A DNA stretch of 64,000 bases from Candidatus Poribacteria bacterium. GTDB taxonomy: Bacteria > Poribacteria > WGA-4E > WGA-3G. Shown here one piece after another: positions 64 through 62,421 of the stretch. Numbering within the stretch: position 1 is the first letter of the stretch; every line of letters begins with the position of its first letter. Location: contig CAXXLX010000002.1 in assembly GCA_963665235.2 (NCBI GenBank), positions 160,001 to 224,000 on the forward strand, given 5' to 3'. The notes below the pieces were generated by a model. It did no database searches, had not been told where the DNA came from, and saw nothing but the letters and a program-made list of their open reading frames with translations. Position numbers and translations under genes: made by a program.

Positions 64-804
64 TTAAATGTCAAAAAGTTGCATCTGTTCTCCGCTCACG
101 TTCGGAATTTCATGCTCTTTGTCAATCGGTTTCTTGCTTTTCTCAATTGGAACTGTAAATTCCCCGGGGATGCGTTCGTGCAAATACACCCCCCAGTCCT
201 TTTCTGAATCGTGCAAGACCTTACCGTTGTATTTAATCGGCTCTGTTACGAGACAATAGGCTCGAATACCGCAAGGTCGACGAGGAATTTCCGCCGTAAA
301 GTGCGTAGGTAACGCTTGCACCTGTCCGTGAAGCTGCTCATCAGGAAAAGGGAGTATCGTATTTTGATAGGTTGTCTCCGCCTTATCCTCCAGTTCAATT
401 TCCTTTACAGATTTGACGGTCGCTAAATCAGAAGAACGTCCCAAAAGCAAGGCGTAACGGGGCCGTTCAAAGGCCCCCTTTAGACATATCTCCGGGGTAT
501 AGAGATAAAGTTCCGGTTGAACGAGAAATTCGCGTTTGTTGACATTAGATTTCCCTTTTAATAAATTTTTCCCTTTGTATGGAAATTCGTAAACAGTTTC
601 CAAATCAACAGACTTTCCTTTACTCTGAAAAACAAATCCAATGGCGACATCATGCGGTGTGACCCAATCACCTTTTGCAGCAGTAAGGAGGCCATAAAGT
701 GTCGACAGCGGGGGCAACGGAAGAGTCGGTTGGAATCCGCTAATAAATAGCGGATTCCGAAACGAGGCAACCCACCCGGTAATGTGAACGCGAATCACTT
801 TCAT
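64..804 (-). CDS. cas5: Type I-B Cas5 with C-terminal extension
   Basis: ASFRNP...QPTLPLPPLSTLYGLL N-terminal motif, LLLGRSSDL glycine loop, operon position. Confidence 0.92.
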   Translation of the reverse strand: MKVIRVHITGWVASFRNPLFISGFQPTLPLPPLSTLYGLLTAAKGDWVTPHDVAIGFVFQSKGKSVDLETVYEFPYKGKNLLKGKSNVNKREFLVQPELYLYTPEICLKGAFERPRYALLLGRSSDLATVKSVKEIELEDKAETTYQNTILPFPDEQLHGQVQALPTHFTAEIPRRPCGIRAYCLVTEPIKYNGKVLHDSEKDWGVYLHERIPGEFTVPIEKSKKPIDKEHEIPNVSGEQMQLFDI

Positions 805-1817
805 GGTGAATCCTCAACATGTTCCTCCAACTTTTCTGCAAGCTGGGCAATTACCTTGTTTGGCGAATCATAAACGACTTCGTTGCGGTCATCTGCCAAT
901 GCAGAAAGGTCCTCGTCTAACTCATCCATAAACCCGCTCCGCCTGCCGATGTAAATTGTGTCACAGAACCGATCTTCGTAATCATCCATAACTTCGCGGA
1001 GTGCGTCGAGGCTAAGTTGACCGCCTTCGTCTTTCTCAACAACGAGATTCATGAAAGGGTGATTCCCGCCATCAAGGACAGACAGGATGATTAATTTAGG
1101 TGTAACGTCGGTGAGATGAGATGTTAACTTTGCGCCGCCACTGAGGAGTGGGAGTGCCTCAAGCGTTTGCCGGCATCGGCGAACCCGTGTCTCTTTTGGG
1201 AGTACCCACACCGGCTTTTCACCAACTTGTGTGCCTCCTGCGTCTTGGATAGTCTGAACATAACTTGGAGTAATATTCTTATAACCTGTCCTATTAATAT
1301 CCGAGAATGTCCCAACCGCGCTAAGGTCCAAAGAAAAAATACCCTTAAGCACACATGAATAGAACTCATGTATGTGAATCGCAGGAAATTCTTCCTGTCT
1401 CGCCATTACGCCATAATCTGGAGTAGGTCGTTGGGGTTCAATTGAAATCAGCGGTGAATTTTTCAATGGTGAAACGCGGGTAACAGTTTCTTTAGGTTTT
1501 CCCTTTGGTGCTCTCATATAACCGAAGACATCATCGTCGTCATATACCGCTGGGGAAGCATCGGTGTAGACAACCTGAGTGTGCCCTTTACCACTACGCG
1601 TGATTGGAGAAACGTTCCAACTAAACTCATTTTCCAGCGTAGTTCGCCACCAATTTCGCCAAGCTTGTCCAGAGACATAAGGATAAGGGTCTTTTCCTCT
1701 TCTCAAGACTTTGACCTTAACGATGTTTTCTGCTCTTTCTGATAGATCTTCTCCTGCGTTGTTTAGCGCAGAATAAGGGGCATCAATTAGGGTTAATCCA
1801 ATAAGGTGTTTAGACAT
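801..1817 (-). CDS. cas7: Type I-B Cas7 (Cst2/DevR)
   Basis: ALNNAG, YPYVSGQAWR.WWR, DDDVFGYM, TRVSPL motifs. Confidence 0.93.
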   Translation of the reverse strand: MSKHLIGLTLIDAPYSALNNAGEDLSERAENIVKVKVLRRGKDPYPYVSGQAWRNWWRTTLENEFSWNVSPITRSGKGHTQVVYTDASPAVYDDDDVFGYMRAPKGKPKETVTRVSPLKNSPLISIEPQRPTPDYGVMARQEEFPAIHIHEFYSCVLKGIFSLDLSAVGTFSDINRTGYKNITPSYVQTIQDAGGTQVGEKPVWVLPKETRVRRCRQTLEALPLLSGGAKLTSHLTDVTPKLIILSVLDGGNHPFMNLVVEKDEGGQLSLDALREVMDDYEDRFCDTIYIGRRSGFMDELDEDLSALADDRNEVVYDSPNKVIAQLAEKLEEHVEDSP

Positions 1818-1819
1818 GA

Positions 1820-2212
1820 TTAGTCCTCCTCATTTGCTTCGGTTTCAGATACATCGTCTGCATCCGATGTATTATCTTCGTCAAAATCAACAAAACCTTT
1901 TTCTTGCAACCAATTATGGAGTCGTTCATAAACACGAAAAAGCAGCAAGTCGCGTGTCTCCCCAAACTTCGTTGCACTAGAATCTTCGCTTTCTGGGAAA
2001 AGATGTTCCATATAATCGTCAATTGAAAAAAGCGGGTTCGGTGCTCCCTGTTTAATTCTCTCCCGAATGATATATAATAGGACGTTTCGGCACGCCTCGT
2101 AACTTTTGGCACGTTCCAACCGAACAAGTCGCTTATCGCTTCCAGATTTGCGGATGCATTCTGCGATGAGATCGCCGACTTGTTTAATTTTTTCAAGTCG
2201 TGTTTGTTCCAT
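1820..2212 (-). CDS. cas11: Cas11 small subunit from an internal start in cas8 (130 aa)
   Basis: AAAGGAGG + 8 nt + in-frame ATG (MEQTRLEKIK); internal cas11 translation is established for I-B/I-C/I-D. Confidence 0.75.
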   Translation of the reverse strand: MEQTRLEKIKQVGDLIAECIRKSGSDKRLVRLERAKSYEACRNVLLYIIRERIKQGAPNPLFSIDDYMEHLFPESEDSSATKFGETRDLLLFRVYERLHNWLQEKGFVDFDEDNTSDADDVSETEANEED

Positions 2213-3226
2213 AGTTCTAACCTCCTTTAGGTAGAGGGAAAGCAATTCCCAATTTCCGCGTGGTTTTCGGATTCGCCTATTTAAAAAGTATCCAAGAATT
2301 GAGACGTCTTGCAACAGGTTTTCATACACACGGTTTGCCCGGTTCTTGTAATCTTTTTCGGATTTCACTTCATCCCAATTGACTTTCCGTAACCGCTTCG
2401 GACAATTTCCTGCCAAGCGGTTTTAAATTCGCCTTGATACACAACGCGCAAAAATCGAAACATTGGGGCAGGCATATAGAAAATTTCAAGTTCAGGGTTT
2501 GTCGTTATAATTTGTAAAGCAGTAAACCTGCATAGATATATTCTCATCAGCACGCATTTCCTGATATTGTGTCATTTCCCGAGCCATGTAGAACACACCG
2601 TTGCGTGGATTTGCGTAGCCAGGGTTAAAACATCCCGTTATGTCTTTTCGAAGGTGTTGATCGCGAATATCCTTGATACAGACCCGTCGCCCAACTCCTC
2701 AATGCCTTCCATGAATTAGAATGGAGTGTAAGAAACCTACCACCAGTTGCCATGAATACCAATGGGGATAACTGAATAGCAATAGCACATGCAGAACAGT
2801 AACCTGTCCCCTCAACGAAAGGCAGAAAAAAAGTTACGTAATCCGCCAGATCCTGTTAAAGGTATGTCTTGTTTTTAAAAGAAAAATGTTGGCATCCCGT
2901 CTACCGCATCCCATACAATCCCCAGTTTGGTCCAAATCGCAGATAGTTTCCAAATAATTTTTGCACTCCTCTTTAAGTAATTCAACACGATTTCGCTTAC
3001 TGTACGCAGGGTTAGTCAAAACACTATTTGGAAAAATACTGTGTAAATTTCCCCAACCAGCATTTGTTTGCATCATCGGCGCAACATCATTAACAACCTT
3101 CTCAAGGTCATCAGGGGTAATCTGCTCAGGTTGGACACCGCGCCCTAACCATTCACAGATTCCACAAACACCAGCATCCACAAATGGATTGCCCATCAAT
3201 TTTTCATAGATTGGCATGCTATTCAC
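1820..3226 (-). pseudogene. cas8: Cas8 (Cst1-type, CxxC-CxxC) broken by about 5 single-base frameshifts; real decay or sequencing error
   Basis: GNPFVDAG and CMGC, then after manual reframing IPLTGSGGLRNFF, YCSAC, FTNY; net +3 nt puts start and stop in the same frame. Confidence 0.85.
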
Positions 3227-3545
3227 CTCCTTTCAAAAATATTTAGTTTAGATCAGACCGAGTCTTACCCTATTTTGTCACCGCACTAGTGCTGCCATAA
3301 ACGGCCTGCTCCGATAGAGCAGCAGAAACAGCACATCGCGTTGCTAAACATATCGCTCCGATGGAGCGGAAATCACCAGAAAAGCGTATCTATCTATTGG
3401 GGTCGGTAGCATATTTAAGCGCGGTTTCAAGGCAACTCGCGTCTTGGAATTCAGGTTTTCGTACGATAAATCGCCCTTGCCAATATTAACGGGCGATAAA
3501 TCACTCTTGCCCCAAATAGGTTTCCGTATTACTCAAACCTACGTA

Positions 3546-3574
3546 ATTATACCATATAAATTAGCATTTGTCAA
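3546..3574 (-). promoter_or_regulatory. Consensus sigma70 promoter for the cas8-cas7-cas5-cas3 operon
   Basis: TTGACA-17 nt-TATAAT with extended TG. Confidence 0.8.
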
Positions 3575-3593
3575 ATTAAAATTTATTTATCGT

Positions 3594-4346
3594 TTACAAC
3601 CCCACCATTCCAAAACCGGCACTATTCTTATCCCCAAACCCGCATTCGTAGCCGACCTGAATAAGCGAAGGACTACCTGTCACCGTAAACGGACACAGCA
3701 CACCCCGAATTTTAATACCTTTAAAATCCACCAGACGCGTAACGCGGCCCCGTTTTCGTTGTATATAGGCAGTATCATAACGAAAAGTTAACGAATCATC
3801 AGCAGGCGTGCGGCCGTAAATCGCCTGATGTTTACCTATTAAGTTTTGACGAACAAGCGACGAAAACTCCGGGTCGTCTGGTAAACAGTAATGCGTTCCC
3901 TCTTTTCCATCTCGTTCCCGTACAGTAGACATAGTAATAGGAGAGAGGCATCGGAACCGCATCTCCTGTCGAAAATGGGGAACGCGCGGCACCCTTACAT
4001 CTTCGACCCGTAGCTGGTGCCTGCCGATATCTAAACTGCCCACGGTAAGCAACGTATCCGCAAAATGCGACAAAAATTGTTCTACAGGAGAAGACACAAA
4101 CCACATCAGAGTTGATTTAAAATGGATTAACTCACCGTCGATGCGTCTCCGGTCCGCCATCAGTTGTGAGAAGGTAAAAAGTTTGAAACGTTTCGCATCC
4201 GCATGGTATCCATCATCGTGTAAAAAGCTAGCGTATTCCGGATTAGACTCAGCGAGGAAACGATAGATGATACCTGTGAGTAGGTGATTATAGTTAATAG
4301 GTAGGGTTATACCGTTGCCTACATCGGCAAGGATATGAATTCGCAT
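3594..4346 (-). CDS. cas6: Cas6 endoribonuclease
   Basis: FKLFTFS motif and C-terminal GFGDKNSAGFG loop. Confidence 0.95.
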   Translation of the reverse strand: MRIHILADVGNGITLPINYNHLLTGIIYRFLAESNPEYASFLHDDGYHADAKRFKLFTFSQLMADRRRIDGELIHFKSTLMWFVSSPVEQFLSHFADTLLTVGSLDIGRHQLRVEDVRVPRVPHFRQEMRFRCLSPITMSTVRERDGKEGTHYCLPDDPEFSSLVRQNLIGKHQAIYGRTPADDSLTFRYDTAYIQRKRGRVTRLVDFKGIKIRGVLCPFTVTGSPSLIQVGYECGFGDKNSAGFGMVGL

Positions 4347-4513
4347 AGAATTACCTCCAATTTGTCGTAGGGGCGAGGTCCCCTTGTCCGCTAGGTCTCC
4401 CTATTATTTCGTTGTTGGAAACCTATGGCTGTTGGCTTCATGGCAAGAAATATAAAAGCCCTCTTCTCTTTTCTTTCTCTTGCTAATCGCCAATCGCCAA
4501 GCGCCAATTACTA

Positions 4514-18601: not shown

Positions 18602-19862
18602 CAAAATCTTCGGTGTGGAAACCCCGTTGCTTTAGCACGGGGAGGAAACACCGCTCCTATAGTTGAAGTTTAAGCGTGTTAGCACGCTAAAATCAGACCG
18701 CTTCGCCCCTGTTGTTAATCGGTTTCCATCTAAACTATAGATAGAAAACAATCCTTTTGCGTTGACCCCCGCCAAGCGTGTTAATCCGTGCTTTTCGTGT
18801 TTGATAAGTGTGTTCTTGACAAGTCCATTGCCTAACACAGTGCCCCCATAGCGTGGGCGTTTCCCCCCTTTTTGAGGGTTTTGTCGGTGCAGTCCACGCC
18901 TGCATACAGGTATAGGGGCTATGCAGAAAATATCAATGTTGTCAGGCGTGCTATCGCCACCGAGCGTGTGATATGCAAGACACCAACTATCTACACAATG
19001 TGCGTCAAAAGTTTCGGATAGTTTCTTTGATGCCTTTTTAAGACCTAACCTATCGCGTATCTCTTTTGTTTCCCACCCTTGAAGTGTTAGCAACTGCCAC
19101 CGCTTTTGAATCTCGGTATAGAACCATTGCTTGCCAACCTCAAGCGGACTAAAGGTTTGATTCCATTTTCTTTGATATTGCTTAGTTCTTGCCTTAATGT
19201 CTTCAACTGTCACGTGTGTAATCGGATAAAGTTTAGAAAACCACTCCAATATACGAAGTTTCCAATCCCAACGTGCACGCGTGCCTGCGGGGATAAGTTC
19301 CGTGTTGGCGCGGTGATTTGTCCTATTCTTTCTATTTGGACATTTTCGGCTGCGCCTTCCCCGCCGTAGTTCACGTCTTTTTTCTACTTTCTTGCCAACC
19401 TTGTTATGTGCATCCGCTTGCACATTCAGATAGGTGTGAGACGCAGACTTCACCGTGAAACCTTCTCTTTTAGAACCAGGATCCACGCCAACTACTATGT
19501 CTTGAAGTTCTCTGGCTGAGGGGGCTACGTTTAACCTAACGCAGAATATACCGTTAGACCAAAAGGGGGTTGCTTTCCCTGCTTGTATCCAACGCCTTGC
19601 CCGTGAGGGTTTAGTAGGCATCAGAGGTTGTTGGTTTTTATCTACCACGGGAACTAACATGCGTAAACCTCCGAAGAGTGTATATTGCCCCATCCAGATC
19701 ACAACACAGAGTGGAATCAGACTTGGGGAGCATCCGAAACATCTTTTGACGTACCAATAGTCTGTGCTGCGATATATTACTGTAGTCAACGGTTTAACTT
19801 GTGAAGAGGTGCTTGGTAGGCACATTGCACAAGCCCCCAGGCTTTAGCGGGGGGTTATTGAC
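18602..19862 (-). mobile_element. Non-autonomous IS200/IS605-type isrB (OMEGA) element
   Basis: Subterminal hairpins at both ends, no TSD, cleavage sites TCAT| and TGAC| match guide tetramers GAAA and CAAG. Confidence 0.88.
18632..19660 (-). CDS. isrB: IsrB RNA-guided nickase (342 aa)
   Basis: PLMP, RARR, GVDPG, Arg-rich bridge helix, VEDI, DAHCVD; no HNH; GGAGG RBS. Confidence 0.88.
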   Translation of the reverse strand: MLVPVVDKNQQPLMPTKPSRARRWIQAGKATPFWSNGIFCVRLNVAPSARELQDIVVGVDPGSKREGFTVKSASHTYLNVQADAHNKVGKKVEKRRELRRGRRSRKCPNRKNRTNHRANTELIPAGTRARWDWKLRILEWFSKLYPITHVTVEDIKARTKQYQRKWNQTFSPLEVGKQWFYTEIQKRWQLLTLQGWETKEIRDRLGLKKASKKLSETFDAHCVDSWCLAYHTLGGDSTPDNIDIFCIAPIPVCRRGLHRQNPQKGGKRPRYGGTVLGNGLVKNTLIKHEKHGLTRLAGVNAKGLFSIYSLDGNRLTTGAKRSDFSVLTRLNFNYRSGVSSPC

Positions 19863-20655: not shown

Positions 20656-21331
20656 TTACCACTCTATATCCTCCATGGATTGCACCTCTAACGCCTGTGT
20701 GTGGATTGAATCTAGACGTTGGAGACTGTGCATTCTGCCGATTTTACGGGTGAGGGTATCCGGAACATCGCCAAAACGGAAATGTAGCTCATTGGCGATT
20801 AGCAAATGGCGATTAGCAATTAGCAAGAGGTTTGTGATTCTAAGAACATATCCGAAGCGTGTCAGAGACCTCTTTCTCTTGCCAACAGCCAACAGCCAAC
20901 AGCCATAAGCCAATTTAGCAAATGGCAATTAGCGATTAGCAATTAGCAAGAGGTTTATGATTCTAAACACATATCTGAAGCGCGTCAGAGACCTCTTTCT
21001 CTTGCCAATAGCCATAAGCCAATAGCCATAAGCCAATAACCATAAGAATATGGATTATGACTTCATCGGTTTTATCTGCTGTTTGAAAAGGCGCGCGATA
21101 CAAAATATCCGCTTCGCGTTCCCGTAAGTCTCTCGGAATGAAGCTCGTGCTAAGCCGCTCAAGCCCGCTAAAGTTGATACGTGGGGCAAGGTCGGGGGCA
21201 GCAATCTCTACCAACCCCTGGACGTTTTCCGGTCTTTGAAACAACAGACGCAGGCTTCTGTCTGAAAAGTGTGCAACCTTTCCGCCAAGTAAATCATTGA
21301 GACCGTTCGTCTCTTTCGTTTCCTCTGCCAT
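20656..21331 (-). pseudogene. Rpn/YhgA-like nuclease, middle deleted and replaced by two repeat elements
   Basis: N-terminal DRSLR...SFIP.DLREREADILY; C-terminal RFGDVP tail; repeats at about 20790-21043. Confidence 0.75.
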
Positions 21332-21535: not shown

Positions 21536-21647
21536 TACCATTTTTATTAATTATTCTACCATTACCAGTTGTTAGAAATGAAACGGAGAACGGCACAAAC
21601 TGGAAGTTTATGCTACAAGAAAGAGACATTTTCAATTAGAAATGGTA
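21536..21647. mobile_element. MITE family B copy (one REP)
   Basis: TACCATT...AATGGTA ends, TAA on both flanks. Confidence 0.8.
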
Positions 21648-22029
21648 TAACATACAAGCACAGTGCGTTAAAACAGACAAGTTTAGTATAACACAATTTG
21701 GCGATTAGCGATTGGCAAATAGCAATTAGCAAGAGGTTTATGATTCTAAGCACATATCTCACGCGCGTCAGAGCTCTCTAGCCAATAACCAACAGCAATT
21801 GTCGGATTGGACTCCGTTCAATCCGACATACAAGGACAGCTAGGTAGCACAGTGCGTTAAAACAGACAAGTTTAGTATAACACAATTTGACAACACATGG
21901 CAAACTTTTTTTGCTGAGTGCTTGCGAAAATTTTTACTTGACTGCCATTGCAAAATTATGCTAAACTTTAATCAAGAAGATACCTCACAGTTTTTCAACC
22001 GAAATCCAACTTAGCGGAGCCGCTCTATT

Positions 22030-25704: not shown

Positions 25705-26475
25705 ATGACATATCAAATTTTGACAAACGGACAAACGAAATACGCCTGCTTTGGCATACTCATCTTAATCAGTGCCTTGGTAGCAGGGTGTGCAATCACC
25801 CCGCGGCCCTCTGTGGAAATCTACATAGCACCGATTGAAGGGCACCCGAATGCCAAGGTGAATGCTGAAACAGGGGCTGTAACTGTCCAACAGAAGGGCG
25901 TTGCCGTTACCCTTGAACCCCTCGATGAGGTAGAGCTATTCGCGCTCACCGATAACCCGCGCATGAACCCCTATCTTTTTGTCAGGGGAAATGGGGCTGT
26001 TGAGCCTATCTACACCGTTTTTGAAGTGACAGTCCATAATTTGGACACCCCACGGGTCTTAGCCGATGATGCCGCGGTGCTCATCGATGCGAACGGGGCA
26101 CAATACGGAAACCTACCGTACGATTACTTCGAAGCCCTCTACGATAATCTAGAATCCCCTCAGCACCCTTCCACTACAATAGCACCTTATCCGAATTACT
26201 ATCCTACCTTCCAAAGATATTATCCTTACTATCAAACGTACCTGGATGTCGCAGCTTTGGAGGTAGGCCGGGACGTAGTGCAAGCGAGTCTCTTTACGAG
26301 TGGGAAGTTGTTCCCGGGGGCAAAACGGCGGGGGCTCTTAATCTTCGACCGGCTTAACATGGACGCGACGGAGCTCAAGGTTATTTTACCCGAAATCCGC
26401 ATCGTCCGTTCAAATGGGAAGCAAGATAAATTGACGTTTAAATTTGACTTTAGGCAAGTCATTGTTGAAAAATAG
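25705..26475 (+). CDS. Hypothetical lipoprotein
   Basis: AGGAGG RBS, lipobox VAGC. Confidence 0.65.
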   Translation: MTYQILTNGQTKYACFGILILISALVAGCAITPRPSVEIYIAPIEGHPNAKVNAETGAVTVQQKGVAVTLEPLDEVELFALTDNPRMNPYLFVRGNGAVEPIYTVFEVTVHNLDTPRVLADDAAVLIDANGAQYGNLPYDYFEALYDNLESPQHPSTTIAPYPNYYPTFQRYYPYYQTYLDVAALEVGRDVVQASLFTSGKLFPGAKRRGLLIFDRLNMDATELKVILPEIRIVRSNGKQDKLTFKFDFRQVIVEK

Positions 26476-26510
26476 TGCGAACCTTAGATAATAAAGGGAG
26501 GATGTGTAAA

Positions 26511-27668
26511 ATGAGAAATGGGTTTATAGGATTGTTGCTAATATTAATAGGGTTTTTACCCATATTGGGATGTCAGCAAGAGTTAAAAGTTGCTGTCGCG
26601 GGCCCCTTTACCGGCAATTCCGCTGCATTCGGAGAGATGATTCAGCGCGGTGCCGAGCTAAAGGCGAAAGAGATTAATGCCGCTGGCGGGATTCAGGGAA
26701 TAAAACTAGAACTTGTCTTTAAAGATGACGAAGGCAGGTCCACGGTGGCTGGCAATGTTGCAACTGACATCGCCACTAATCCTCAATTCCTTGCCGTTGT
26801 CGGGCATTTTAACAGTGCATGCTCTTTGGCGGGTAAACCAATTTATATGCGGAACGGTATTGTCGAATTATCCCCAGGCTCAACAAATGTGACCGTCTGT
26901 GAAGGAAGTGATTGGACATTCCGGAATTTGTACCGAGACGATTTTCAGGGGCAATTTATTGCCAGATATCTCAAAAAGTTTTTTCCAGACAAACAAAACG
27001 TCGCTGTTCTGTTCGAAAACGATGATTACGGCAGAGGACTCAAAAACTCGTTTACTGCCGAAGCGGAAGCAATAGGACTCAACATGGTTGCCTCCAAGGC
27101 TTATGACCGCGATAATACCGATTTTAAAACACAACTCACCAGCATTAAGGGGGAAAACCCCGATGTTATCTTTATCTCAGGCCTCTATAGCCAAGCAGCA
27201 TTAATCGTTAAGCAGGCTCGGGAGGTTGGTATTAAAGCGATGTTTTTCGGAGCAGATGGCGTAGACTCAGAAGATTTTATCAAAAATGCAGAGGGGGCCG
27301 CAGAGGGAACTTACATCACAACGCCTTTCACCTTCGGTGCCGGTGGAGAAGAGGCACAGAAAGTTGCACAGGCTTTTGAAGCCGAATACGGAAGAGCTCC
27401 CGACACCTGGGCCGCCCTCTCTTACGATGCTGTTGGCATGATTGCCGAAGCTCTTGAAAAGACATACAACCAAGACGCAACGACCGCCGAAAATAGAGAA
27501 GCCATCAGAGACCATCTCGCATCCCTCGACACGCCTGAAGAAGGATACCAAGGTATTACGGGATTAACCTATTTTGACAGAAACGGGGATACTGTTGACA
27601 AACCCGCCTACGTCAAAATTGTCAAGGATGGCAAATTTACGGCCGCACCGCAGCAATACGGTGAATAA
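26511..27668 (+). CDS. livK: Branched-chain amino acid ABC substrate-binding protein
   Basis: GPFTG, EINAAGG, VVGHFNS, YDA motifs. Confidence 0.88.
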   Translation: MRNGFIGLLLILIGFLPILGCQQELKVAVAGPFTGNSAAFGEMIQRGAELKAKEINAAGGIQGIKLELVFKDDEGRSTVAGNVATDIATNPQFLAVVGHFNSACSLAGKPIYMRNGIVELSPGSTNVTVCEGSDWTFRNLYRDDFQGQFIARYLKKFFPDKQNVAVLFENDDYGRGLKNSFTAEAEAIGLNMVASKAYDRDNTDFKTQLTSIKGENPDVIFISGLYSQAALIVKQAREVGIKAMFFGADGVDSEDFIKNAEGAAEGTYITTPFTFGAGGEEAQKVAQAFEAEYGRAPDTWAALSYDAVGMIAEALEKTYNQDATTAENREAIRDHLASLDTPEEGYQGITGLTYFDRNGDTVDKPAYVKIVKDGKFTAAPQQYGE

Positions 27669-27731
27669 CTGGGGACGTGCCAAACTACGGAAATAGCATA
27701 TCGGTCACCCCGGCTACGATATGCTATTTTC

Positions 27732-28378
27732 ACCTAAGTTGCCACCTTTGTAGCATAATCTTCCAGATTGTGCACATAGTAGCATAATCTTCATGAAGAT
27801 TAATTTATTAATTCGGTAATAATCCGACATAGCGTAGCAATGCTTGTGAGCCGCCTCTAAACTGTGTCATAAAGTCAAGCACCTTGTCTTTGAGGGTCTC
27901 CCAGATTGTGCATAACATGCACTATTTCAATCGGGAGTTTTGTACCGATTTTCTCGGAAAGTTTTCCGGTCCAATTCGGCGGGGTCATAATCTTCCAGAT
28001 TGTGCACATAGTAGCATAATCTTCCAGATTGTGCACATAGTAGCATAATCTTCCAGATTGTGCACATAGTAGCATAATCTCGCTTCTTTAGCAGCCCTTT
28101 CTTTGTGTGGAGAAGTTTCGAAGATAAGCGGGTTCCCCTGTATCGCGGAGTTCAATCAGTCTTTGGCGTTCATCTTTACTGAGTTCAAGATTGTGCACAT
28201 AGTAGCATAATCTTCCAGATTGTGCACATAGTAGCATAATCTTCCAGATTGTGCACATAGTAGCATAATCTTCCAGATTGTGCACATAGTAGCATAATCT
28301 TCCAGATTGTGCATATTTGTGTGCAAACCGGAAGGGAACGGGACAAAGTCTAAAAACTTATAAGTAGCAAATTGGGTT
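27732..28378 (-). mobile_element. IS630-like fossil: three transposase fragments joined by 29-bp REP arrays
   Basis: Imperfect TIRs (12/16); collinear fragments LELSKDERQRL..YLR, TPPNW..LPIEIV, WETLK..LLRYVGLLPN*. Confidence 0.72.
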
Positions 28379-28542
28379 ATGTAGCATAATCTGCCAGAAT
28401 TAGCATAAGGTGATTAGCAAATAGCAAGACAAAGAAAGATAAGACGCGCGTCAAAGATATTGTCCGCGTCAGAGACTTCTGGTCTCCAACAGTTTCCAAC
28501 GGTTTCCAATAGCCAACAACCATTGAAGGATAAGCGTGAATT

Positions 28543-29442
28543 ATGGGGTCAGAACTTTTAGAACAAATTATTAACGGGTTAGTGCAGGGGGGCATTTATG
28601 CCCTTATCGCTGTCGGTTACACGATGGTCTACGGGATTATCCAGTTGATTAATTTCGCCCATGGTGAAATCTTCATGCTCGGTGCCTACTTTGCACTAAT
28701 CCTTGTGACGTTTTTCGCTCTTCCTTTTTGGGTGGCCATACCGGTTAGCATGACTTTATGTGCCGGAATCGGTATATTAATGGATGTTATTGCCTATCGA
28801 CCGCTACGGAATGCCCCCCGATTGTCCGCCCTAATTACGGCTATAGGGCTGTCAATCGGAATGCAGAACCTCGTGCGGATGATAGGGACCGCGAGGCATC
28901 GGACCTTTCCGCGGGAATCCCTCCCCTCTATTTTTTTGAGTGAAAACGCCCTTTCCCTTCCAGGGGGCGCCGACTTACCTTACCGTGATGTCGTTATCAT
29001 TCTGCTCGCTATTCTACTCATGGTCGGTTTAAACCTGCTGGTTCACTTCACTAAAACAGGGAAAGCGATGCGTGCTTGTGCACAAAACAAAGTCGCTTCC
29101 AATCTCATGGGTATCAAGACGAATCAGGTCATAGCCGTAACGTTTGCAATCGGGTCCGCGCTAGGCGCGGTGGCTGGTATAATGGTGGGACTACGCGAGA
29201 CTATCGAACCGATGATGGGGTACTATAAGGGGGTTGCCGCATTTGCTGCGGCGGTCCTCGGTGGAATTGGAAGTATCACAGGCGCAATCCTCGGCGGTGT
29301 CTTGATAGGACTTGCTGAAGCACTCGGCGCAGGTTATATATCTTCGGGATACCGGATAGCTATCGCCTATATCATCATGATAGTTGTCATTTTGATACGT
29401 CCCTCAGGAATAATCGGAAAATCAACCGCATCTCGTGCCTAG
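28543..29442 (+). CDS. livH: BCAA ABC permease
   Basis: YALIAVGYTMVYG..INFAHG, G.AMRA, VLGGIGS. Confidence 0.92.
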   Translation: MGSELLEQIINGLVQGGIYALIAVGYTMVYGIIQLINFAHGEIFMLGAYFALILVTFFALPFWVAIPVSMTLCAGIGILMDVIAYRPLRNAPRLSALITAIGLSIGMQNLVRMIGTARHRTFPRESLPSIFLSENALSLPGGADLPYRDVVIILLAILLMVGLNLLVHFTKTGKAMRACAQNKVASNLMGIKTNQVIAVTFAIGSALGAVAGIMVGLRETIEPMMGYYKGVAAFAAAVLGGIGSITGAILGGVLIGLAEALGAGYISSGYRIAIAYIIMIVVILIRPSGIIGKSTASRA

Positions 29443-29459
29443 TCTGTTCAGGTGTTCTT

Positions 29460-30485
29460 ATGTTAAAAAGAATGGTTCAAGAAAATTTGACCACCAAAAA
29501 CCTCACGCTCTTTTTAATTATACTGCTCTTCCCACTACTGATGGTCGGTCTAGACGCCATTGCTAAGATGTTGTTAAGTACTTATCGTGTTTCCCTGCCG
29601 GTCAGTGGTGGCTTGCTGCTCCGCATCGCTGTGCTTGTATGGCTTTCTATTCTGCTTTCTATCGGCTTGAACATCGTTTGCGGATTTACCGGGCTGTTAG
29701 ACCTCGGATATGTTGGGTTTTACCTCGTCGGGGGATACACCGCAGGGATTTTAATGACACGGTTCGGTTGGAGCTATTGGTTTGTCCTCCCACTTGCTAC
29801 GCTGAACGGTGCCTTGTGGGGGTTATTACGAGGTGTCCCAACCTTACGGCTCACCGGCGATTATTTTGCTATTGTAACCTTCGGGTTTGCAGAGCTCCTT
29901 TTTCGCTTCGTCAAAAACGAAGAATGGTTATTACCTGCAGGTAGAGTTAACGGACAAATTAACGATGTCCCCGCGCCAACGCTTTTCGGTATAAATCTCG
30001 ATCAGATGTGGCACCACTACTATCATATTTTGATTTTGGTTGGCTTAGTGACGTTTGTGACGTATCGCTTACTCCATTCGCGTGTCGGAAGAGCCTGGGT
30101 CGCTATCCGCGAAGATGAACAAGCCGCTGAAAGTATGGGAATTAATGTGAGTCGATATAAATCGTTGGCGTTCGCTGTCAGTGCAGCTATTGGCGCGCTC
30201 GCCGGGGCATTTTTTGCGCCCTTCCAGGTCAGTTTTGACGCAAATGCTTTTGAATTCTGGCAATCTATTCTCATTCTGTGTATGGTCGTACTCGGCGGTA
30301 TGGGGAGTATAAAAGGCGCGATTATAGGCGGGGCTGTCCTCGGCTCTTTAGGTGAAGTTCTGCGCGCAATTCTTTCGGCCTTGTCCTTGTACTTCTTAGC
30401 GGATGCACGCTACCTCATCTTCGGTATTATCCTAGTTTTGCTGATGCGTTTCCGTCCCGGTGGGCTGATTTACAAGAAGGCTTGA
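29460..30485 (+). CDS. livM: BCAA ABC permease
   Basis: GLLDLG, LRL.GDY.AIVT, GRAW.AIREDE.AA. Confidence 0.92.
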   Translation: MLKRMVQENLTTKNLTLFLIILLFPLLMVGLDAIAKMLLSTYRVSLPVSGGLLLRIAVLVWLSILLSIGLNIVCGFTGLLDLGYVGFYLVGGYTAGILMTRFGWSYWFVLPLATLNGALWGLLRGVPTLRLTGDYFAIVTFGFAELLFRFVKNEEWLLPAGRVNGQINDVPAPTLFGINLDQMWHHYYHILILVGLVTFVTYRLLHSRVGRAWVAIREDEQAAESMGINVSRYKSLAFAVSAAIGALAGAFFAPFQVSFDANAFEFWQSILILCMVVLGGMGSIKGAIIGGAVLGSLGEVLRAILSALSLYFLADARYLIFGIILVLLMRFRPGGLIYKKA

Positions 30486-32939: not shown

Positions 32940-33083
32940 AATAGTTATCATTGGCAATTGGCAATTAGCAATTAGCAATTAGCAAGATGTTGTGATTCTA
33001 AGAAGAACTCTGAAGCGCGTCAGAGGCTTCGCCTCTTTGTTTCTTTCTCTTGCTAACAACCATAAGCCAATTGCCAATCGCTG

Positions 33084-37446: not shown

Positions 37447-37812
37447 GGGTGTGTAAAGTTTTTGTCTAAGGGAATTCTGTCTCTGATGGAACGCTAGACA
37501 TCGCTATAAAAAACGACAAAACATCGCGTGCACAGCACGCTCCTACATAGGAGGTCGCGTGCACAGCACGCTCCTACATAGGAGGTCGCGTGCACAGCAC
37601 GCTCCTACATAGGAGGTCGCGTGTTCATGTCACAGCACGCTCCTACTGAAGGAAAGGATTGTTCGCACCGGACAATCCACGTCCCCTGTGTCCTTCGCGC
37701 GTAATCCGTGATTCTGACAACACACGCCAAATCCACTCTTCCACCCTTCCACTCTTCCCCCTTCCACTCTTCCACCCTTCCATCTATCCGCGTGACAAAA
37801 ACTTTACGTACC
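37447..37812. mobile_element. MITE family D copy with 31-bp REP tandem (about 37524-37647)
   Basis: TIR GGGTGTGTAAAGTTTTTGT / ACAAAAACTTTACGTACC. Confidence 0.7.
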
Positions 37813-40911: not shown

Positions 40912-41260
40912 CACGCGAGCTTGATAATAAATATCCGTTTTCTCTAAACATTTTTGAGGTTCTCCGAAAAAAGCGGAATGAGTGGAGCAGAAACCGCTGC
41001 TTCTATAAATATATCGTCCTTGAGGAGCGGGAAACCGTTTGCCCGAATACTGGGGCTAAGATTTGGGCGTTAGCGGTTTTCTATAAATATATCGTCCTTG
41101 ACTGTTTGCCCGAATACTGGGGCTAAGATTTGGGCGTTAGCGGTTTTCTATAAATATATCGTCCTTGAGGAGCGGGAAACCGTTTGCCCGAATACTGGGG
41201 CTAAGATTTGGGCGTTAGCGGTTTTCTATAAATATATCGTCCCTACGGGACTAAGACCCG
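40912..41260. repeat. Family A left end followed by about 80-bp tandem REP units; no right TIR
   Basis: ACGCGAGCTTGATAATAAAT then three CTATAAATATATCGTCC...GGGGCTAAG units and a final plain unit. Confidence 0.75.
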
Positions 41261-47978: not shown

Positions 47979-48546
47979 CTAAACTTTGGACAATTTTAGG
48001 GGGCGTAACTTTATTGTCAAAGGGATAGGTGGAAGAATGGAAGGGTGGAAGGGTGGAAGGGTGGAAGGGTGGAGTTTGCTTTTTTTGTCTGAATCACGGA
48101 AGGCACAGAGGCCGCAGAGGACGCGGAAAGAAGAGGGGTTTGGCTAAAATCTATAAAGATACCGCCCCGCTGGGGCTAGTTTGTGGTGTGGTTGTGTTTT
48201 CTATAAAGATACCGCCCCGCTGGGGCTAGTTTGTGGTGTGGTTGTGTTTTCTATAAAGATACCGCCCCGCTGGGGCTAGTTTGTGGTGTGGTTGTGTTTT
48301 CTATAAAGATACCGCCCCGCTGGGGCTAGTTTGTGGTGTGGTTGTGTTTTCTATAAAGATACCGCCCCGCTGGGGCTAGTTTGTGGTGTGGTTGTGTTTT
48401 CTATAAAGATACCGCCCCGCTGGGGCTGCGCTTCCGAGCATTCGAGTCTATTTTCTACAAGTTGCCCGTGTGTGAGCAACTTTGAGAAAAATCAGAAATG
48501 CTTTGAAAATCGGGGATCCACCGGACAGATATTGTCCAAACTATAG
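47979..48546. mobile_element. MITE family E copy 1 with 50-bp tandem REP array (48151-48427)
   Basis: TIR CTAAACTTTGGACAAT / ATTGTCCAAACTATAG, TSD TAATTAATT. Confidence 0.82.
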
Positions 48547-52344: not shown

Positions 52345-52580
52345 TACCATTTTTATTAATTATTCTATCATTACCGGTTGTTAGAAATGAAACGGAGAAC
52401 GGAAGACCCAAACTAAAAGTTTATGCTACTACAAAGCACAAACTGGAAGTTTATGCTACTACAAAGCACAAACTGGAAGTTTATGCTACTACAAAGCACA
52501 AACTGGAAGTTTATGCTACTACAAAGCACAAACTGGAAGTTTATGCTACTACAAAGAGACATTTTCAATTAGGAATGGTA
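52345..52580. mobile_element. MITE family B copy with 30-bp REP tandem
   Basis: TACCATT/AATGGTA ends, TAA flanks, repeated GCACAAACTGGAAGTTTATGCTAC. Confidence 0.82.
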
Positions 52581-52745
52581 TAATATCGCGTGCACAGCAC
52601 GCTCCTACAGAAGAGGTTTTTTGAACAACCGGCGAAAAATATCGAGAACTAAATGGCCCTGTAAGTAGTTGAGATTTTTCTTGACTTTTTCACCAAAATG
52701 TTATATACTTTATTTTCTATAGAATGCCTTAAAGGAGGTTTCGTT

Positions 52746-54690: not shown

Positions 54691-54917
54691 TACCATTTTT
54701 ATTAATTATTCTATCATTACCGGTTGTTAGAAATGAAACGGAGAACGGAAGACCCAAACTGGAAGTTTATGCTACAAGCACGGCACAAACTGGAAGTTTA
54801 GGCTACAATAAAGAGCACAAACTGGAAGTTTATGCTACTGGAAGTTTATGCTACAAGCACGGCACAAACTGGAAGTTTATGCTACAAGCACGGCACAAAC
54901 TGGAAGTTTATGCTACA
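54691..54917. repeat. Family B left end plus degenerate REP tandem
   Basis: Matches the 52345 left end; no right TIR. Confidence 0.75.
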
Positions 54918-55039
54918 GCCAGCGAAACCATAAACCAACAGGCTACAGGATGGACGCAGCAAGTTGATAAACACTTAACTTAGGAATAAACAACATAGCA
55001 CAGCTTGAAAACGCAAGCATCAACTTTAAGGAAATAATT

Positions 55040-57745: not shown

Positions 57746-59154
57746 CAAATCTTCCGCTACAAAACCCCCATGCTTTAGCTGGGGGATGTAGTAGCGGTGC
57801 ATGAGTTGAAATTTTAATTTGACTTTTCCTCAAAAATGGGGTATACTCTATTTAATGCCTTAGCGGAGAATCTATAGACTTCTCCGCCCCTTTTTAGAGG
57901 TAGGTAGCAACTTTTCAAGGCAGGATACCCTTAGATGTATACCACAAAATACAAACTTTTTCGTGCCCCGCGTAATCGTAATCTCAAGCGTTTAACGTGG
58001 GTGGCCCATGATGTTTGGAACTATTTTTTAGGTTGGCAGCGGACGCGCTATTCTCTTGGTCTTGCGTATATGTCGCTTCCTGAGATGTCGCGTGCCTTTA
58101 CCGTCCTTAGGAACTCACATCCTGAAGTGTTTTCGCATTGGCGTGAGTTAGACTCTTGGGCGGCGCGTGATATACTGCGGCGTTTAGACACCGGGTATCA
58201 GCGTTTTTTTAAGTGTATTGCGAAGCGTCCGCCTAAGTTTCGTTCATGGCGCAAACCGTATTCATTCACAATGTCCCCCTCTGGCTATAGTTTCTATGGT
58301 GATAGGGTCCGTATAATGGAAAAACAATATCGGTTTAATCTAAGCCGCGAGATAGTAGGTAATATTAAGACAGTCACTATCAAAGCAGATAGTGTTGGTG
58401 ACTTCTATATGTGTGTTGTAACAGATGACACCGTATCTGAAATCCTACCTAAGACGGGTAGTGCTGCAGGGTATGATTTCGGTATCAAAACGATGTTCAC
58501 TTGTTCCGATGGCACAGAATATGAGTCTCCTGAGTTCTATAAAACCTCTATGGCGGAACTGTCTGTAGCCCAACGTGTGCATGCTAAGAAAGTAAAGGGT
58601 AGCAACAACTGTGAGCGTTCCCGCTTAGATGTGGCGCGCAAACACCGTAAAATCAAAAGACAACGTGAGGATCATCATTGGAAACTCGCGAAGCGTTTTG
58701 TGCATGAACAGGATCACCTCTGTTTTGAGACGTTGACTTTTGAGGGTATGAAACGGTTGTGGGGGCGTCCAGTTTCTGATATTGCGCCCTACGCCTTCCA
58801 TGAAAAGTTGCGCCATCAAGCGGTCAAACACGGTAAAGAGGTTCACTATATTGACCGTTTTGAACCGACTTCTAAGACTTGTAGCAACTGTGGACAGCGA
58901 AAACAGCAGCTGGATTTGTCAGTTCGTCAATGGTGTTGTTCTACTTGCGCGCAGAAACATCATCGTGACGTTAACGCTGCGATAAATATTTTAAAGGTTG
59001 GGGCATCAACCTTTGGATTAGAGGATGTCAGCCTTGCTATTGCGAGCAGCCCTCGCAGACTTCACCCGAAGTCTATACCCCACAATCCGCACCAGAGAGC
59101 ATGGGATTCACTTTCAAAAGAATCCCCCTTGCTTTAGCTGGGGGAGTATGTCAA
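57746..59154 (+). mobile_element. Non-autonomous IS605-type tnpB element
   Basis: TTTAT| left junction, TCAA| right end, subterminal hairpins, no tnpA. Confidence 0.88.
57935..59137 (+). CDS. tnpB: TnpB RNA-guided nuclease
   Basis: GYDFG (D), FETL (E), CSNC..CSTC zinc finger, RDVNAAINI (D). Confidence 0.93.
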   Translation: MYTTKYKLFRAPRNRNLKRLTWVAHDVWNYFLGWQRTRYSLGLAYMSLPEMSRAFTVLRNSHPEVFSHWRELDSWAARDILRRLDTGYQRFFKCIAKRPPKFRSWRKPYSFTMSPSGYSFYGDRVRIMEKQYRFNLSREIVGNIKTVTIKADSVGDFYMCVVTDDTVSEILPKTGSAAGYDFGIKTMFTCSDGTEYESPEFYKTSMAELSVAQRVHAKKVKGSNNCERSRLDVARKHRKIKRQREDHHWKLAKRFVHEQDHLCFETLTFEGMKRLWGRPVSDIAPYAFHEKLRHQAVKHGKEVHYIDRFEPTSKTCSNCGQRKQQLDLSVRQWCCSTCAQKHHRDVNAAINILKVGASTFGLEDVSLAIASSPRRLHPKSIPHNPHQRAWDSLSKESPLL

Positions 59155-61986: not shown

Positions 61987-62155
61987 CGATTGGCGATTGG
62001 CGATTGGCAAGAGAAGAAAGAGAGGGCCCTTCTATTTCTTGCCATAAGCCAACAGCCAAATAAAAGGGAGACATAGCGGGCGAGGAGACCTCGCCCCTAC
62101 GAGACTATTGGTTTGTGATAGGGTTGCCTCGCCCTATTGGCGGTAATGCTTATTA

Positions 62156-62421
62156 TACCATTTCTAATTGAAAATGTCTCTTTCTTGTAGCATAAACTTC
62201 CAGTTTGTGCCTCCTTGTAGCATAAACTTCCAGTTTGTGCCTCCTTGTAGCATAAACTTCCAGTTTGTGCCTCCTTGTAGCATAAACTTCCAGTTTGTGC
62301 CTCCTTGTAGCATAAACTTCCAGTTTGTGCCTCCTTGTAGCATAAACTTTTAGTTTGGGTCTTCCGTTCTCCGTTTCATTTCTAACAACCGGTAATGATA
62401 GAATAATTAATAAAAATGGTA
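62156..62421. mobile_element. MITE family B copy (reverse) with five 30-bp REP units
   Basis: TIRs, TTA flanks. Confidence 0.82.

Follow-up and report, generated by a model that had tools for sequence, protein, structure and literature searches.

An IS630 transposase remnant within a hairpin-repeat array and a MITE in a Poribacteria genome

By what route does a transposase gene come to lie in collinear pieces, with copies of one and the same hairpin repeat standing where its largest parts are missing? The question is raised by an intergenic locus of Candidatus Poribacteria, uncultured sponge symbionts, in a 64-kb stretch of DNA that was analysed over its whole length and is called the window here. 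A preliminary description of the locus proposed a system in which a GTAG hairpin repeat (REP) and a RAYT nuclease drive the deletion of transposon sequence and its replacement by REP units. Our analysis leaves such a dedicated REP/RAYT shredding system unsupported. The best-supported description is that of an unusually legible IS630 remnant with a REP array around it and a MITE outermost, and its condition looks like the result of a one-off copying accident at hairpin DNA rather than of an anti-transposon system.

Three nested layers at one locus

The REP/IS630 remnant occupies an 874-bp gap separating transporter genes. An ABC substrate-binding protein gene (26475-27668, plus strand) forms one flank, and livH- and livM-like permease genes (28543-30485, plus strand) form the other. 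The layers are nested in a fixed sense: a type C MITE encloses a REP array, which in turn encloses the IS630 remnant. Every feature listed in the preliminary description was found where it had been placed, and its 29-bp units were confirmed as TRF arrays. With the terminal inverted repeats abbreviated as TIRs and P0002 denoting an intact relative of the broken transposase, the parts are the following.

27732-27749, minus strand: right TIR of the type C host MITE, GGTGGCAACTTAGGT on the minus strand; the same terminus occurs in 13 loci and the window, usually TA-flanked.
Beside 27732: flanking TA at the right MITE end, degenerate here (GA), as judged from the usual TA flank.
27750-27778, plus strand: complete REP unit (GTAG with 9-bp stem and 3-nt loop, plus a 5-nt linker).
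27779-27792, plus strand: 5' part of a REP unit (GTAG and 5' arm), ending in the loop where the IS end starts; same junction in L039, L014, L024 and L057.
27793-27820, plus strand: 28-nt terminal inverted repeat of the IS630 element, the "type E" end, ATGAAGATTAA...TTAATTCGGTAAT, which matches the consensus of 22 aligned MITE ends.
27808-27903, minus strand: transposase C fragment, P0002 aa 354-384 and stop (tblastn E 6e-16); TGG at 27901-27903 is common to the REP loop.
27901-27913, plus strand: 3' part of a REP unit, 13 nt (loop and 3' arm), the "half unit" separating the C and middle fragments.
27908-27922, no strand: new perfect palindrome GTGCAT-AAC-ATGCAC at the junction of half unit and middle fragment, replacing P0002 codons Q322-L323.
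27918-27985, minus strand: transposase middle fragment, P0002 aa 298-321 with a 6-nt deletion (aa 312-313; tblastn E 2e-6), within the window's own ORF P0123.
27986-28080, plus strand: internal REP array of 3.3 units in place of aa 59-297, i.e. most of the DDE domain (TRF 100% match).
28077-28189, minus strand: transposase N fragment (tblastn), consisting of aa 7-30, a deletion of ~35 nt, aa 43-47, an 8-nt deletion and aa 51-58.
28188-28312, plus strand: REP array, a 13-nt 3' part and 4 full units, the final one (28289-28312) being the native inverted REP of the type C MITE.
28313-28377, minus strand: left part of the type C host MITE, collinear with complete MITEs of L023, L011, L014 and L015.
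Within that left part: 8-nt spacer with the "ATG" (28313-28320), degenerate REP of opposite orientation (28321-28344) and left TIR (28363-28377).
28378-28379, no strand: TA dinucleotide beside the MITE; T before and A after the element in 14/14 copies.
28381-28404, plus strand: solitary diverged REP-like unit outside the MITE.

The outer inverted repeats of the locus (27732 and 28377; 11/15 matching) had been taken for the ends of the IS. They belong to the type C MITE, since identical termini delimit 13 further elements (90-456 bp) at 13 loci. Including the window, the family numbers 14 copies, which measure 90-648 bp, have conserved termini and are preceded by T and followed by A. Read on the minus strand, 28380-28284 can be aligned over its full length with complete type C copies, which share the order left terminus, degenerate REP, 8-nt spacer and inverted REP adjoining the right terminus. 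The ATG at 28314, proposed as the transposase start codon, falls within this type C spacer/REP and does not have that role; the window copy starts at about codon 7 of P0002. Type C elements are short, non-coding, bounded by TIRs and flanked by target-site nucleotides, and they are dispersed in multiple copies, as befits MITEs; no parent IS was found for them.

The middle layer is built of the 29-bp unit, which occurs seven times at no more than one mismatch in the remnant region, against none expected from 100 shuffles. TRF delimits two arrays, one of 4.5 copies (28184-28313, 99% match) and one of 3.3 copies (27986-28080, 100%), and an additional 1.5 units lie at 27750-27792. All units of the remnant have one orientation, and those of the internal array are 100% identical to the flanking ones. 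As DNA, the GTAG strand of the unit forms a hairpin of -5.3 kcal/mol (z -3.9), with nine base pairs in the stem and three nucleotides in the loop. For the complementary strand the value is -4.0 kcal/mol; the GTAG strand folds better because a conserved T.G wobble turns into a C.A mismatch on the complement. In a sister unit of the window, one stem pair has changed from T-A to A-T in a compensatory manner. Covariation was assessed in 40 distinct variants from other genomes, which were gathered partly by sequence distance and partly by a hairpin filter, so that the paired percentage is biased towards structure: 91.7% of the stem cells are paired versus 84.3% after shuffling, with 0 of 500 shuffles as high. 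Both sides of a pair have changed in 25 cells versus 6.6 in shuffled data, affecting 4 of the 9 pairs, and slid controls gave only 19-43% pairing.

REPs begin with a 5' GTAG or GTGG, to which an imperfect palindrome of ~20-35 nt is joined. The unit, with its GTAG and hairpin, agrees in form with the REPs that are listed with RAYT transposases in the available part of the source (Nunvar 2010, PMC2817692, Table 1). It is also abundant. The window contains 24 matches versus 0 expected, and at least 73 loci in genome contigs match a 24-letter pattern that covers both variants, 68 of the 73 being Poribacteria MAGs. The repeat is intergenic, in that no ORF of at least 110 aa spans it in 71 of the 73 loci listed. 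Several other GTAG-hairpin families are present in the REP loci and the window. Direct arrays were detected by TRF in 10 of the 73 loci listed and at 5 places in the window, with a maximum of 15.8 copies (L028). Their periods are 28-34 nt, apart from a single 67-nt period in which a MITE end is included, and the linkers are array-specific.

Two sequences from other genomes (P0124 and P0125) bear on the REP-driven process of the preliminary description. Their ORFs run through REP arrays into the type C right terminus, as judged by eye, and contain no IS630 part. The formation of arrays is a general habit of the repeat and does not need an IS, which argues against the proposed system. As a lead, these observations point to a GTAG hairpin repeat conserved phylum-wide in Poribacteria, riding in several MITE families and forming direct tandem arrays. 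Among the publications listed on Poribacteria transposases and repeats, judged by title, none dealt with REPs or MITEs.

Neither the whole window (gathering score) nor 27400-28700 (E<=1) matched an Rfam family, and a promoter scan gave no promoter-like sites. The terminator scan gave two terminator-like sites versus 0.8 expected, both of them REP hairpins, and is not informative. An effect on the operon, e.g. through REP hairpins in the binding-protein/permease mRNA, is a matter of speculation.

The transposase gene and its losses

The preliminary description had assigned the innermost layer to IS630 by its motifs, and this assignment is borne out. A protein search with the N-fragment ORF found the intact relative P0002 (384 aa), as well as a frameshifted copy (P0001). 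P0002 scores 175.5 bits on NCBIfam NF033545, the IS630 family transposase (cut-off 100), and Pfam recognises DDE_3 at aa 187-357 (1e-20) and four HTH domains (HTH_32, HTH_29, HTH_28 and HTH_23). Against the PDB, the P0002 sequence gave nothing beyond a chance-level match (E 0.004). The four short fragment translations had no Pfam or NCBIfam match because they are too short, and their identity is established through P0002 only. When P0002 was compared with the window by tblastn, all three fragments fell on it in order and on one strand, in agreement with the collinearity claimed earlier.

28187-28118, minus strand: P0002 aa 7-30 (25/26 identical in the aligned stretch, E 7e-10).
28116-28102, minus strand: P0002 aa 43-47.
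28100-28077, minus strand: P0002 aa 51-58, in a different frame.
27985-27918, minus strand: P0002 aa 298-321 without 312-313 (E 2e-6).
27903-27808, minus strand: P0002 aa 354-384 and stop (31/31 identical, E 6e-16).

The unfilled jump suspected within the N fragment consists of two deletions, one of ~35 nt (aa 31-42) and one of 8 nt (aa 48-50). The fragment called "middle" is a real piece of the same gene, but at aa 298-321 it lies near the C-terminus; this position also ruled out our candidate assignment of the piece to the N-terminal DNA-binding region. P0002 starts with MSKRHE, and the window copy begins only after these residues. Altogether the window copy has lost aa 1-6, 31-42, 48-50, 59-297, 312-313 and 322-353, or ~77% of the transposase gene. 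Most of the DDE_3 domain is absent and the copy is therefore dead; the remnant is inert.

REP sequence had been said to fill most of the deletions. It does fill the large missing parts, but by number only two of the five internal deletions are filled: aa 59-297 by 3.3 units and aa 322-353 by the 13-nt half unit. The other three (aa 31-42, 48-50 and 312-313), all small, contain no filler. A sixth loss, from the 5' end to about codon 6, adjoins a REP half. Outside the junctions, the ~80 retained codons show no amino-acid differences from P0002, to be set against the six losses. It follows that the losses were probably quick, and possibly a single event. Other copies of the fragments or of P0002 were not found by tblastn in the 73 loci or the window.

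The IS end and insertion into hairpin loops

One end of the IS carries its terminal repeat; the other is deleted in the window. The retained end matches the terminal repeat found in the 22 aligned ends of small MITEs of ~100-320 bp, here called type E, and includes the transposase stop codon (27808-27810) together with the last codons, which are conserved among relatives, e.g. P0051. Because the shared end overlaps these conserved C-terminal codons and the stop, the type E MITEs can be tied to P0002-type elements.

This link gives a meaning to the outermost right junction of the remnant. At 27792|27793 the IS end adjoins the loop of a REP, and type E MITEs show the same junction in L014, L024 (twice), L039 and L057. 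The junction is simply the natural insertion junction, a normal IS end at a REP loop, and as such it counts against a REP-driven origin. Among 161 REP 5' parts in the loci and the window, 6 continue from the loop into a type E or IS end. In L014 an interrupted and an uninterrupted type C copy lie side by side, with one nucleotide different at the site. The flanks of two-ended type E MITEs pair over 8-10 bp, starting 2 nt off the junction, in 5 of 16 cases. One of these five hairpin insertions is in an unrelated GC-rich hairpin (L042), which suggests that structure is recognised.

Duplication of a TA target is usual for IS630. In the 16 two-ended type E MITEs, relatives that are linked to the IS by their shared end, TA duplication was not found under several definitions of the ends; in 11 of them the nucleotides on either side of the element are identical. 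The insertions thus differ from those usual for IS630 in their position at the apex of a 3-nt loop, in a single identical flanking nucleotide and in the absence of TA duplication. From these sequence comparisons, the apex of the REP loop appears to be a preferred landing site of an IS630-family element.

Insertion sequences that target REP hairpins are known. Those described in the available part of the source include IS1397 and ISKpn1 (IS3), IS621, ISPpu9/10 and ISPa11 (IS110), and ISRm22 (IS4) (Tobes & Pareja 2006, PMC1525189). Like them, as far as that part extends, the present IS and its MITE derivatives occur inside REP palindromes far more often than elsewhere; unlike them, they are of the IS630 family. 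The families with known REP-targeting members are IS3, IS110, IS4, IS256 and IS5, and IS630 is absent from the same part of PMC1525189. No IS630 case was found in literature on REP-targeting insertion sequences judged by title or the start of the abstract. An IS630-type transposase that chooses hairpin loops without TA duplication would represent a new mode of target choice for the family, and could be tested with ordinary transposition assays. We consider this by-product of the analysis, in a phylum whose REP repertoire is undescribed, more interesting than the remnant itself.

Junctions and the origin of the remnant

The remaining junctions tell how the IS pieces and the REP units were joined. 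One of them joins the REP to codon 298 (27986|27985); at the other four, microhomology was read from the window DNA and the P0002 protein. Between the REP arm and codon 7, CT is common to both sides (28188-28189), and the REP-coded CAC-AAT-CT resembles His5-Glu6-Leu7. Between codon 58 and the REP, AGAT is shared (28077-28080; codons 57-58), and between the half unit and codon 354 it is TGG (27901-27903), the Trp354 codon. Three junctions therefore have microhomology of 2-4 nt, and at the fourth, between codon 321 and the half unit, a fold-back palindrome (GTGCAT-AAC-ATGCAC) has newly formed. Microhomology and a new palindrome together indicate copying errors. A simpler origin of the left junction, by deletion between a TGAA in the lost IS end and the TGAA of codons 7-8, was tried and does not fit the sequence.

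As had been noticed, the junctions cluster at the hairpin loop or at the stem ends. The five non-natural breakpoints on the REP side take five different positions in the unit, each of them within the loop or where the stem ends; the chance that all five would fall in these zones is ~0.01 by a post hoc estimate. The N fragment stands exactly where one REP unit would have its three loop nucleotides, and a second split unit encloses the C fragment.

We give about even credence to an origin in which mobile elements became nested and the hairpins then provoked template switching or abortive repair, the order of events and the switching mechanism being what we infer from the junctions. According to this reading a TA-flanked type C MITE carrying two mutually inverted GTAG REPs would have come to lie in the spacer between the binding-protein and livH-like permease genes, and one of its REPs would have been amplified into a direct tandem array. 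A P0002-type IS630 element would have inserted into the loop of one unit, the habitual target of its small non-autonomous relatives. DNA synthesis stalling at the hairpins would then have hopped between the IS and neighbouring REP units at microhomologies of 2-4 nt, either at a replication fork or as the cell closed a gap that a transposase-made excision attempt had left. The outcome would be IS pieces in collinear order, linked by REP sequence that was copied from the array alongside, with ~77% of the gene probably lost within a short time, possibly in one complex event. This reading has its weaknesses. Insertion followed by random switches does not predict that the N and C fragments sit in split REP units with the phase preserved, and an extra assumption is needed, namely a preference of the switches for loops and stem ends. 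Moreover, it concerns a single case and a mechanism beyond statistical test, and a structure-specific nuclease could also have acted, the RAYT search having been small.

The two split units would also be accounted for if several IS copies, independent insertions or duplicates from unequal exchange, had each been trimmed by microhomology deletions anchored at the REP loop, with collinearity arising by accident. The N and C fragments each lie within their own split unit, REP loops are a preferred target, arrays expand readily, and several type E MITEs often occupy one neighbourhood (L018, L024, L057 and L060). Still, we regard this origin as unlikely. At least five separate deletions would be needed, each ending 1-3 nt from an IS/REP boundary, and three independent copies would show the same orientation and collinear order with a chance of ~1/24. 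The N and middle pieces lack any IS end, and the window holds no full-length or one-ended copy.

The single orientation of the units in the remnant, which deletion between direct repeats requires, would also suit another course of events, in which REP units, moving on their own as very small dispersed repeats, invaded the IS at several points and were amplified, after which REP-REP recombination deleted IS segments. In favour of such mobility, the identical 24-nt REP occurs in at least 4 unrelated MITE backbones, type C copies exist both with and without it, and in three window arrays the amplified units are canonical and the unit adjacent to the MITE body is degenerate. Recombination between whole units, however, would leave whole units, and the IS pieces are bounded by partial ones. 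Furthermore, REP-coded peptide was present in none of the best 120 of 811 short P0002 relatives, apart from one chance 4-mer. We therefore judge this course clearly unlikely.

There remains the explanation first offered, that a RAYT-type HUH nuclease or another hairpin-specific enzyme cuts the REP and drives deletion of the transposon and its replacement by REP, so that transposons are disabled. The REP has the shape of RAYT substrates, a 5' GTAG and then a hairpin, as given in the available part of PMC2817692. The same genomes contain several further GTAG-hairpin families, the better-folding GTAG strand (-5.3 vs -4.0 kcal/mol) fits a single-stranded substrate, and the breakpoints are at the loop or stem ends. 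Nevertheless, we hold this explanation to be quite improbable, for three reasons. First, a site-specific HUH nuclease would cut at one position of the unit, and the breakpoints fall at five; three of the five internal deletions are unfilled, and the junctions bear microhomology and a fold-back palindrome. Secondly, a Y1/RAYT transposase turned up neither in the 52 window ORFs (NCBIfam, E<=1e-10) nor, at the 73 loci, in 99 ORFs (Pfam, E<=1e-5) out of the 134 that lie closest to a REP copy; both samples are small. Thirdly, no second REP/IS630 chimera was found among the 120 fragment proteins, the 22 array ORFs or the 73 loci listed. The 22 proteins, which were those matching the REP-array ORF among 1.84 billion representatives, included none that was P0002-like (best E 0.2), and the only one of the 161 REP 5' parts to continue into IS coding DNA was the window's own. 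These tests of recurrence should be interpreted with some caution, since their power is limited by the lack of other P0002-like DNA in the 73 loci.

A unique structure with perfect 29-bp tandem repeats, which are hard for short-read assemblers, in a metagenome-type genome also calls to mind an artefact, i.e. that repeat and IS reads from different places were misjoined. This we consider very improbable. The window's own ORF lies on a contig of 898,819 bp, which speaks for good assembly, similar arrays occur in many independent assemblies, and the orderly microhomology at the junctions and the collinearity of the parts are unlike chimeric joins.

Abortive gap repair with "filler" DNA is known to yield internally deleted elements from maize Ac/Ds and Drosophila P elements. 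By analogy, the remnant would have much in common with these: collinear remnants of a cut-and-paste element, microhomologies, filler copied from nearby and a small palindrome. It differs from Ac/Ds and P elements in that the filler is the tandem hairpin repeat of the insertion site, not the element itself, and in that the element is a bacterial IS630. The remnant may also be likened to the products of microhomology-mediated or quasipalindrome template switching, as presented in the available parts of PMC7202029 and PMC8794818. With hairpin-provoked template switching or abortive repair as the origin, the locus would be a clean natural example of a bacterial cut-and-paste IS reduced in few steps to a MITE-like remnant, one that keeps a readable record in its microhomology, its templated filler and its fold-back palindrome.

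The very small dispersed repeats that Elhai reportedly described from cyanobacteria in 2008 are comparable insofar as tiny hairpin repeats are nested in other repeats. Correia and RUP elements, named in PMC2817692 as IS630-derived bacterial MITEs, offer a second parallel as short TIR-bounded derivatives of IS630-type elements, as far as the available part of that source describes them. Unlike both, the present locus has three nested layers and a remnant with recognisable coding pieces.

Comparison with REP, BIME and REPIN sequences, limited to the available parts of PMC2817692, PMC3116915 and PMC3333891, reveals shared traits: a 5' GTAG with an imperfect palindrome of ~20 nt in many intergenic copies, and also higher-order arrays. 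Inverted pairs with a short spacer are REPIN-like (L004, L032, L048 and the type C MITEs). In contrast to BIMEs, which in these sources alternate in orientation, the Poribacteria arrays are direct and head-to-tail. With respect to the REP/RAYT systems in the same parts of these papers, the Poribacteria repeat differs in its A/T-rich stem, in lying inside TIR-bounded MITEs and in a 24-mer that is identical across many species-level Poribacteria genomes, and no RAYT was found in the ORFs searched.

A further idea, which we count as quite a long shot, is that the REP may be the substrate of an activity that breaks and joins DNA at the hairpin apex, exerted by a RAYT-like protein or by the IS630 transposase taking the REP for its own abutted ends. 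If so, this one activity would guide ISs and MITEs to REP loops, where they would insert with duplication of 1 nt; REP units would be amplified into direct arrays, and inserted elements would be chewed back from the loop and filled with REP. In this way intergenic REP arrays would trap transposons and subsequently erase them. The outer 8 nt of the IS end are the same as the loop-proximal part of the REP.

Hairpin loops as insertion sites

Small MITEs, as well as an IS630 end in the window, were found at the apex of hairpin loops, in the window and in fetched loci carrying REP copies (numbers with the prefix L), as follows:

L014:758-859, small MITE
L024:42-156, small MITE
L039:3043-3342, small MITE
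L042:1865-1969, small MITE; the target is another, GC-rich hairpin
L057:4747-4873, small MITE
Window 27779-27820, IS630 end, its 28-nt terminus common to the small MITEs

These apex insertions display an apparent 1-nt duplication and no TA. Since the insertions occupy loop apices, and since the hairpin used in L042 is a different, GC-rich one, our results suggest that target choice by an IS630-family transposase is directed by structure. One more insertion into the REP hairpin is another small element, starting GAAATCAACGGTATGAATGCC, which splits an inverted REP within its 3' arm (at approximately 3030-3080 in each of L033, L044, L052 and L073).

Distribution of the REP core and arrays of the sister REP

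The 24-nt REP core is identical in many species-level Poribacteria genomes, and among the 73 loci listed, five carry other titles, one of them Desulfobacterales (L071). Across these loci (L001-L073) the core is housed in at least four different MITE backbones, and the REP-bearing backbones include REPIN-like inverted pairs (L004, L032 and L048). A second MITE, with ends TAxTACCATTT, contains the sister REP (the variant with a compensatory stem change) either singly or in arrays of 3-6 units, and is present in four copies in the window:

21540-21650
52360-52590
54700-54930
62150-62420

The units amplified in its arrays have the canonical REP sequence, whereas the unit adjoining the MITE body is degenerate (TT loop, GGGTC arm); consequently, the arrays did not arise simply by copying of the resident unit. 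Other GTAG-hairpin repeat families occur at window 37524-37623, and also at 4367, 18343, 57151 and 62077. One of them is a perfect 31-bp x3.2 array, the unit of which closely resembles classical RAYT-associated REPs (GTAGGAGCG...CGCGA type), and several hairpins are of the GTAGGGGCGAGG type.

Gene context and other features of the window

The REP array at window 27669-28542 lies on the transcribed strand, with a binding-protein gene on one side and permease genes on the other, and mRNA across it would therefore carry about ten hairpins containing G.U. Such an arrangement recalls E. coli malE-malF, where REPs stabilize the upstream mRNA. The remaining arrays in the window are found in either orientation relative to neighboring genes. 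Further features of the window were:

64-4346 (-), type I-B CRISPR-associated genes (NCBIfam): Cas5b, Cas7/Cst2, part of Cas8b1 (match to the model's C-terminal part only) and Cas6
18635-19825 (-), IscB-like ORF (90 bits, under the 175-bit cut-off)
57935-59134 (+), TnpB-family ORF (NF040570, 219.7 bits)
48150-48427, 41001-41242, 20793-21046 and 32950-32985, additional tandem repeats

An Rfam search of the entire window returned no guide-RNA family. The additional tandem repeats are a perfect 50-bp x5.6 array and a 78-bp x3.2 array, as well as runs of repeated 7-nt units (ATTAGCA, GCCAACA and AATCGCC) surrounding short conserved blocks.
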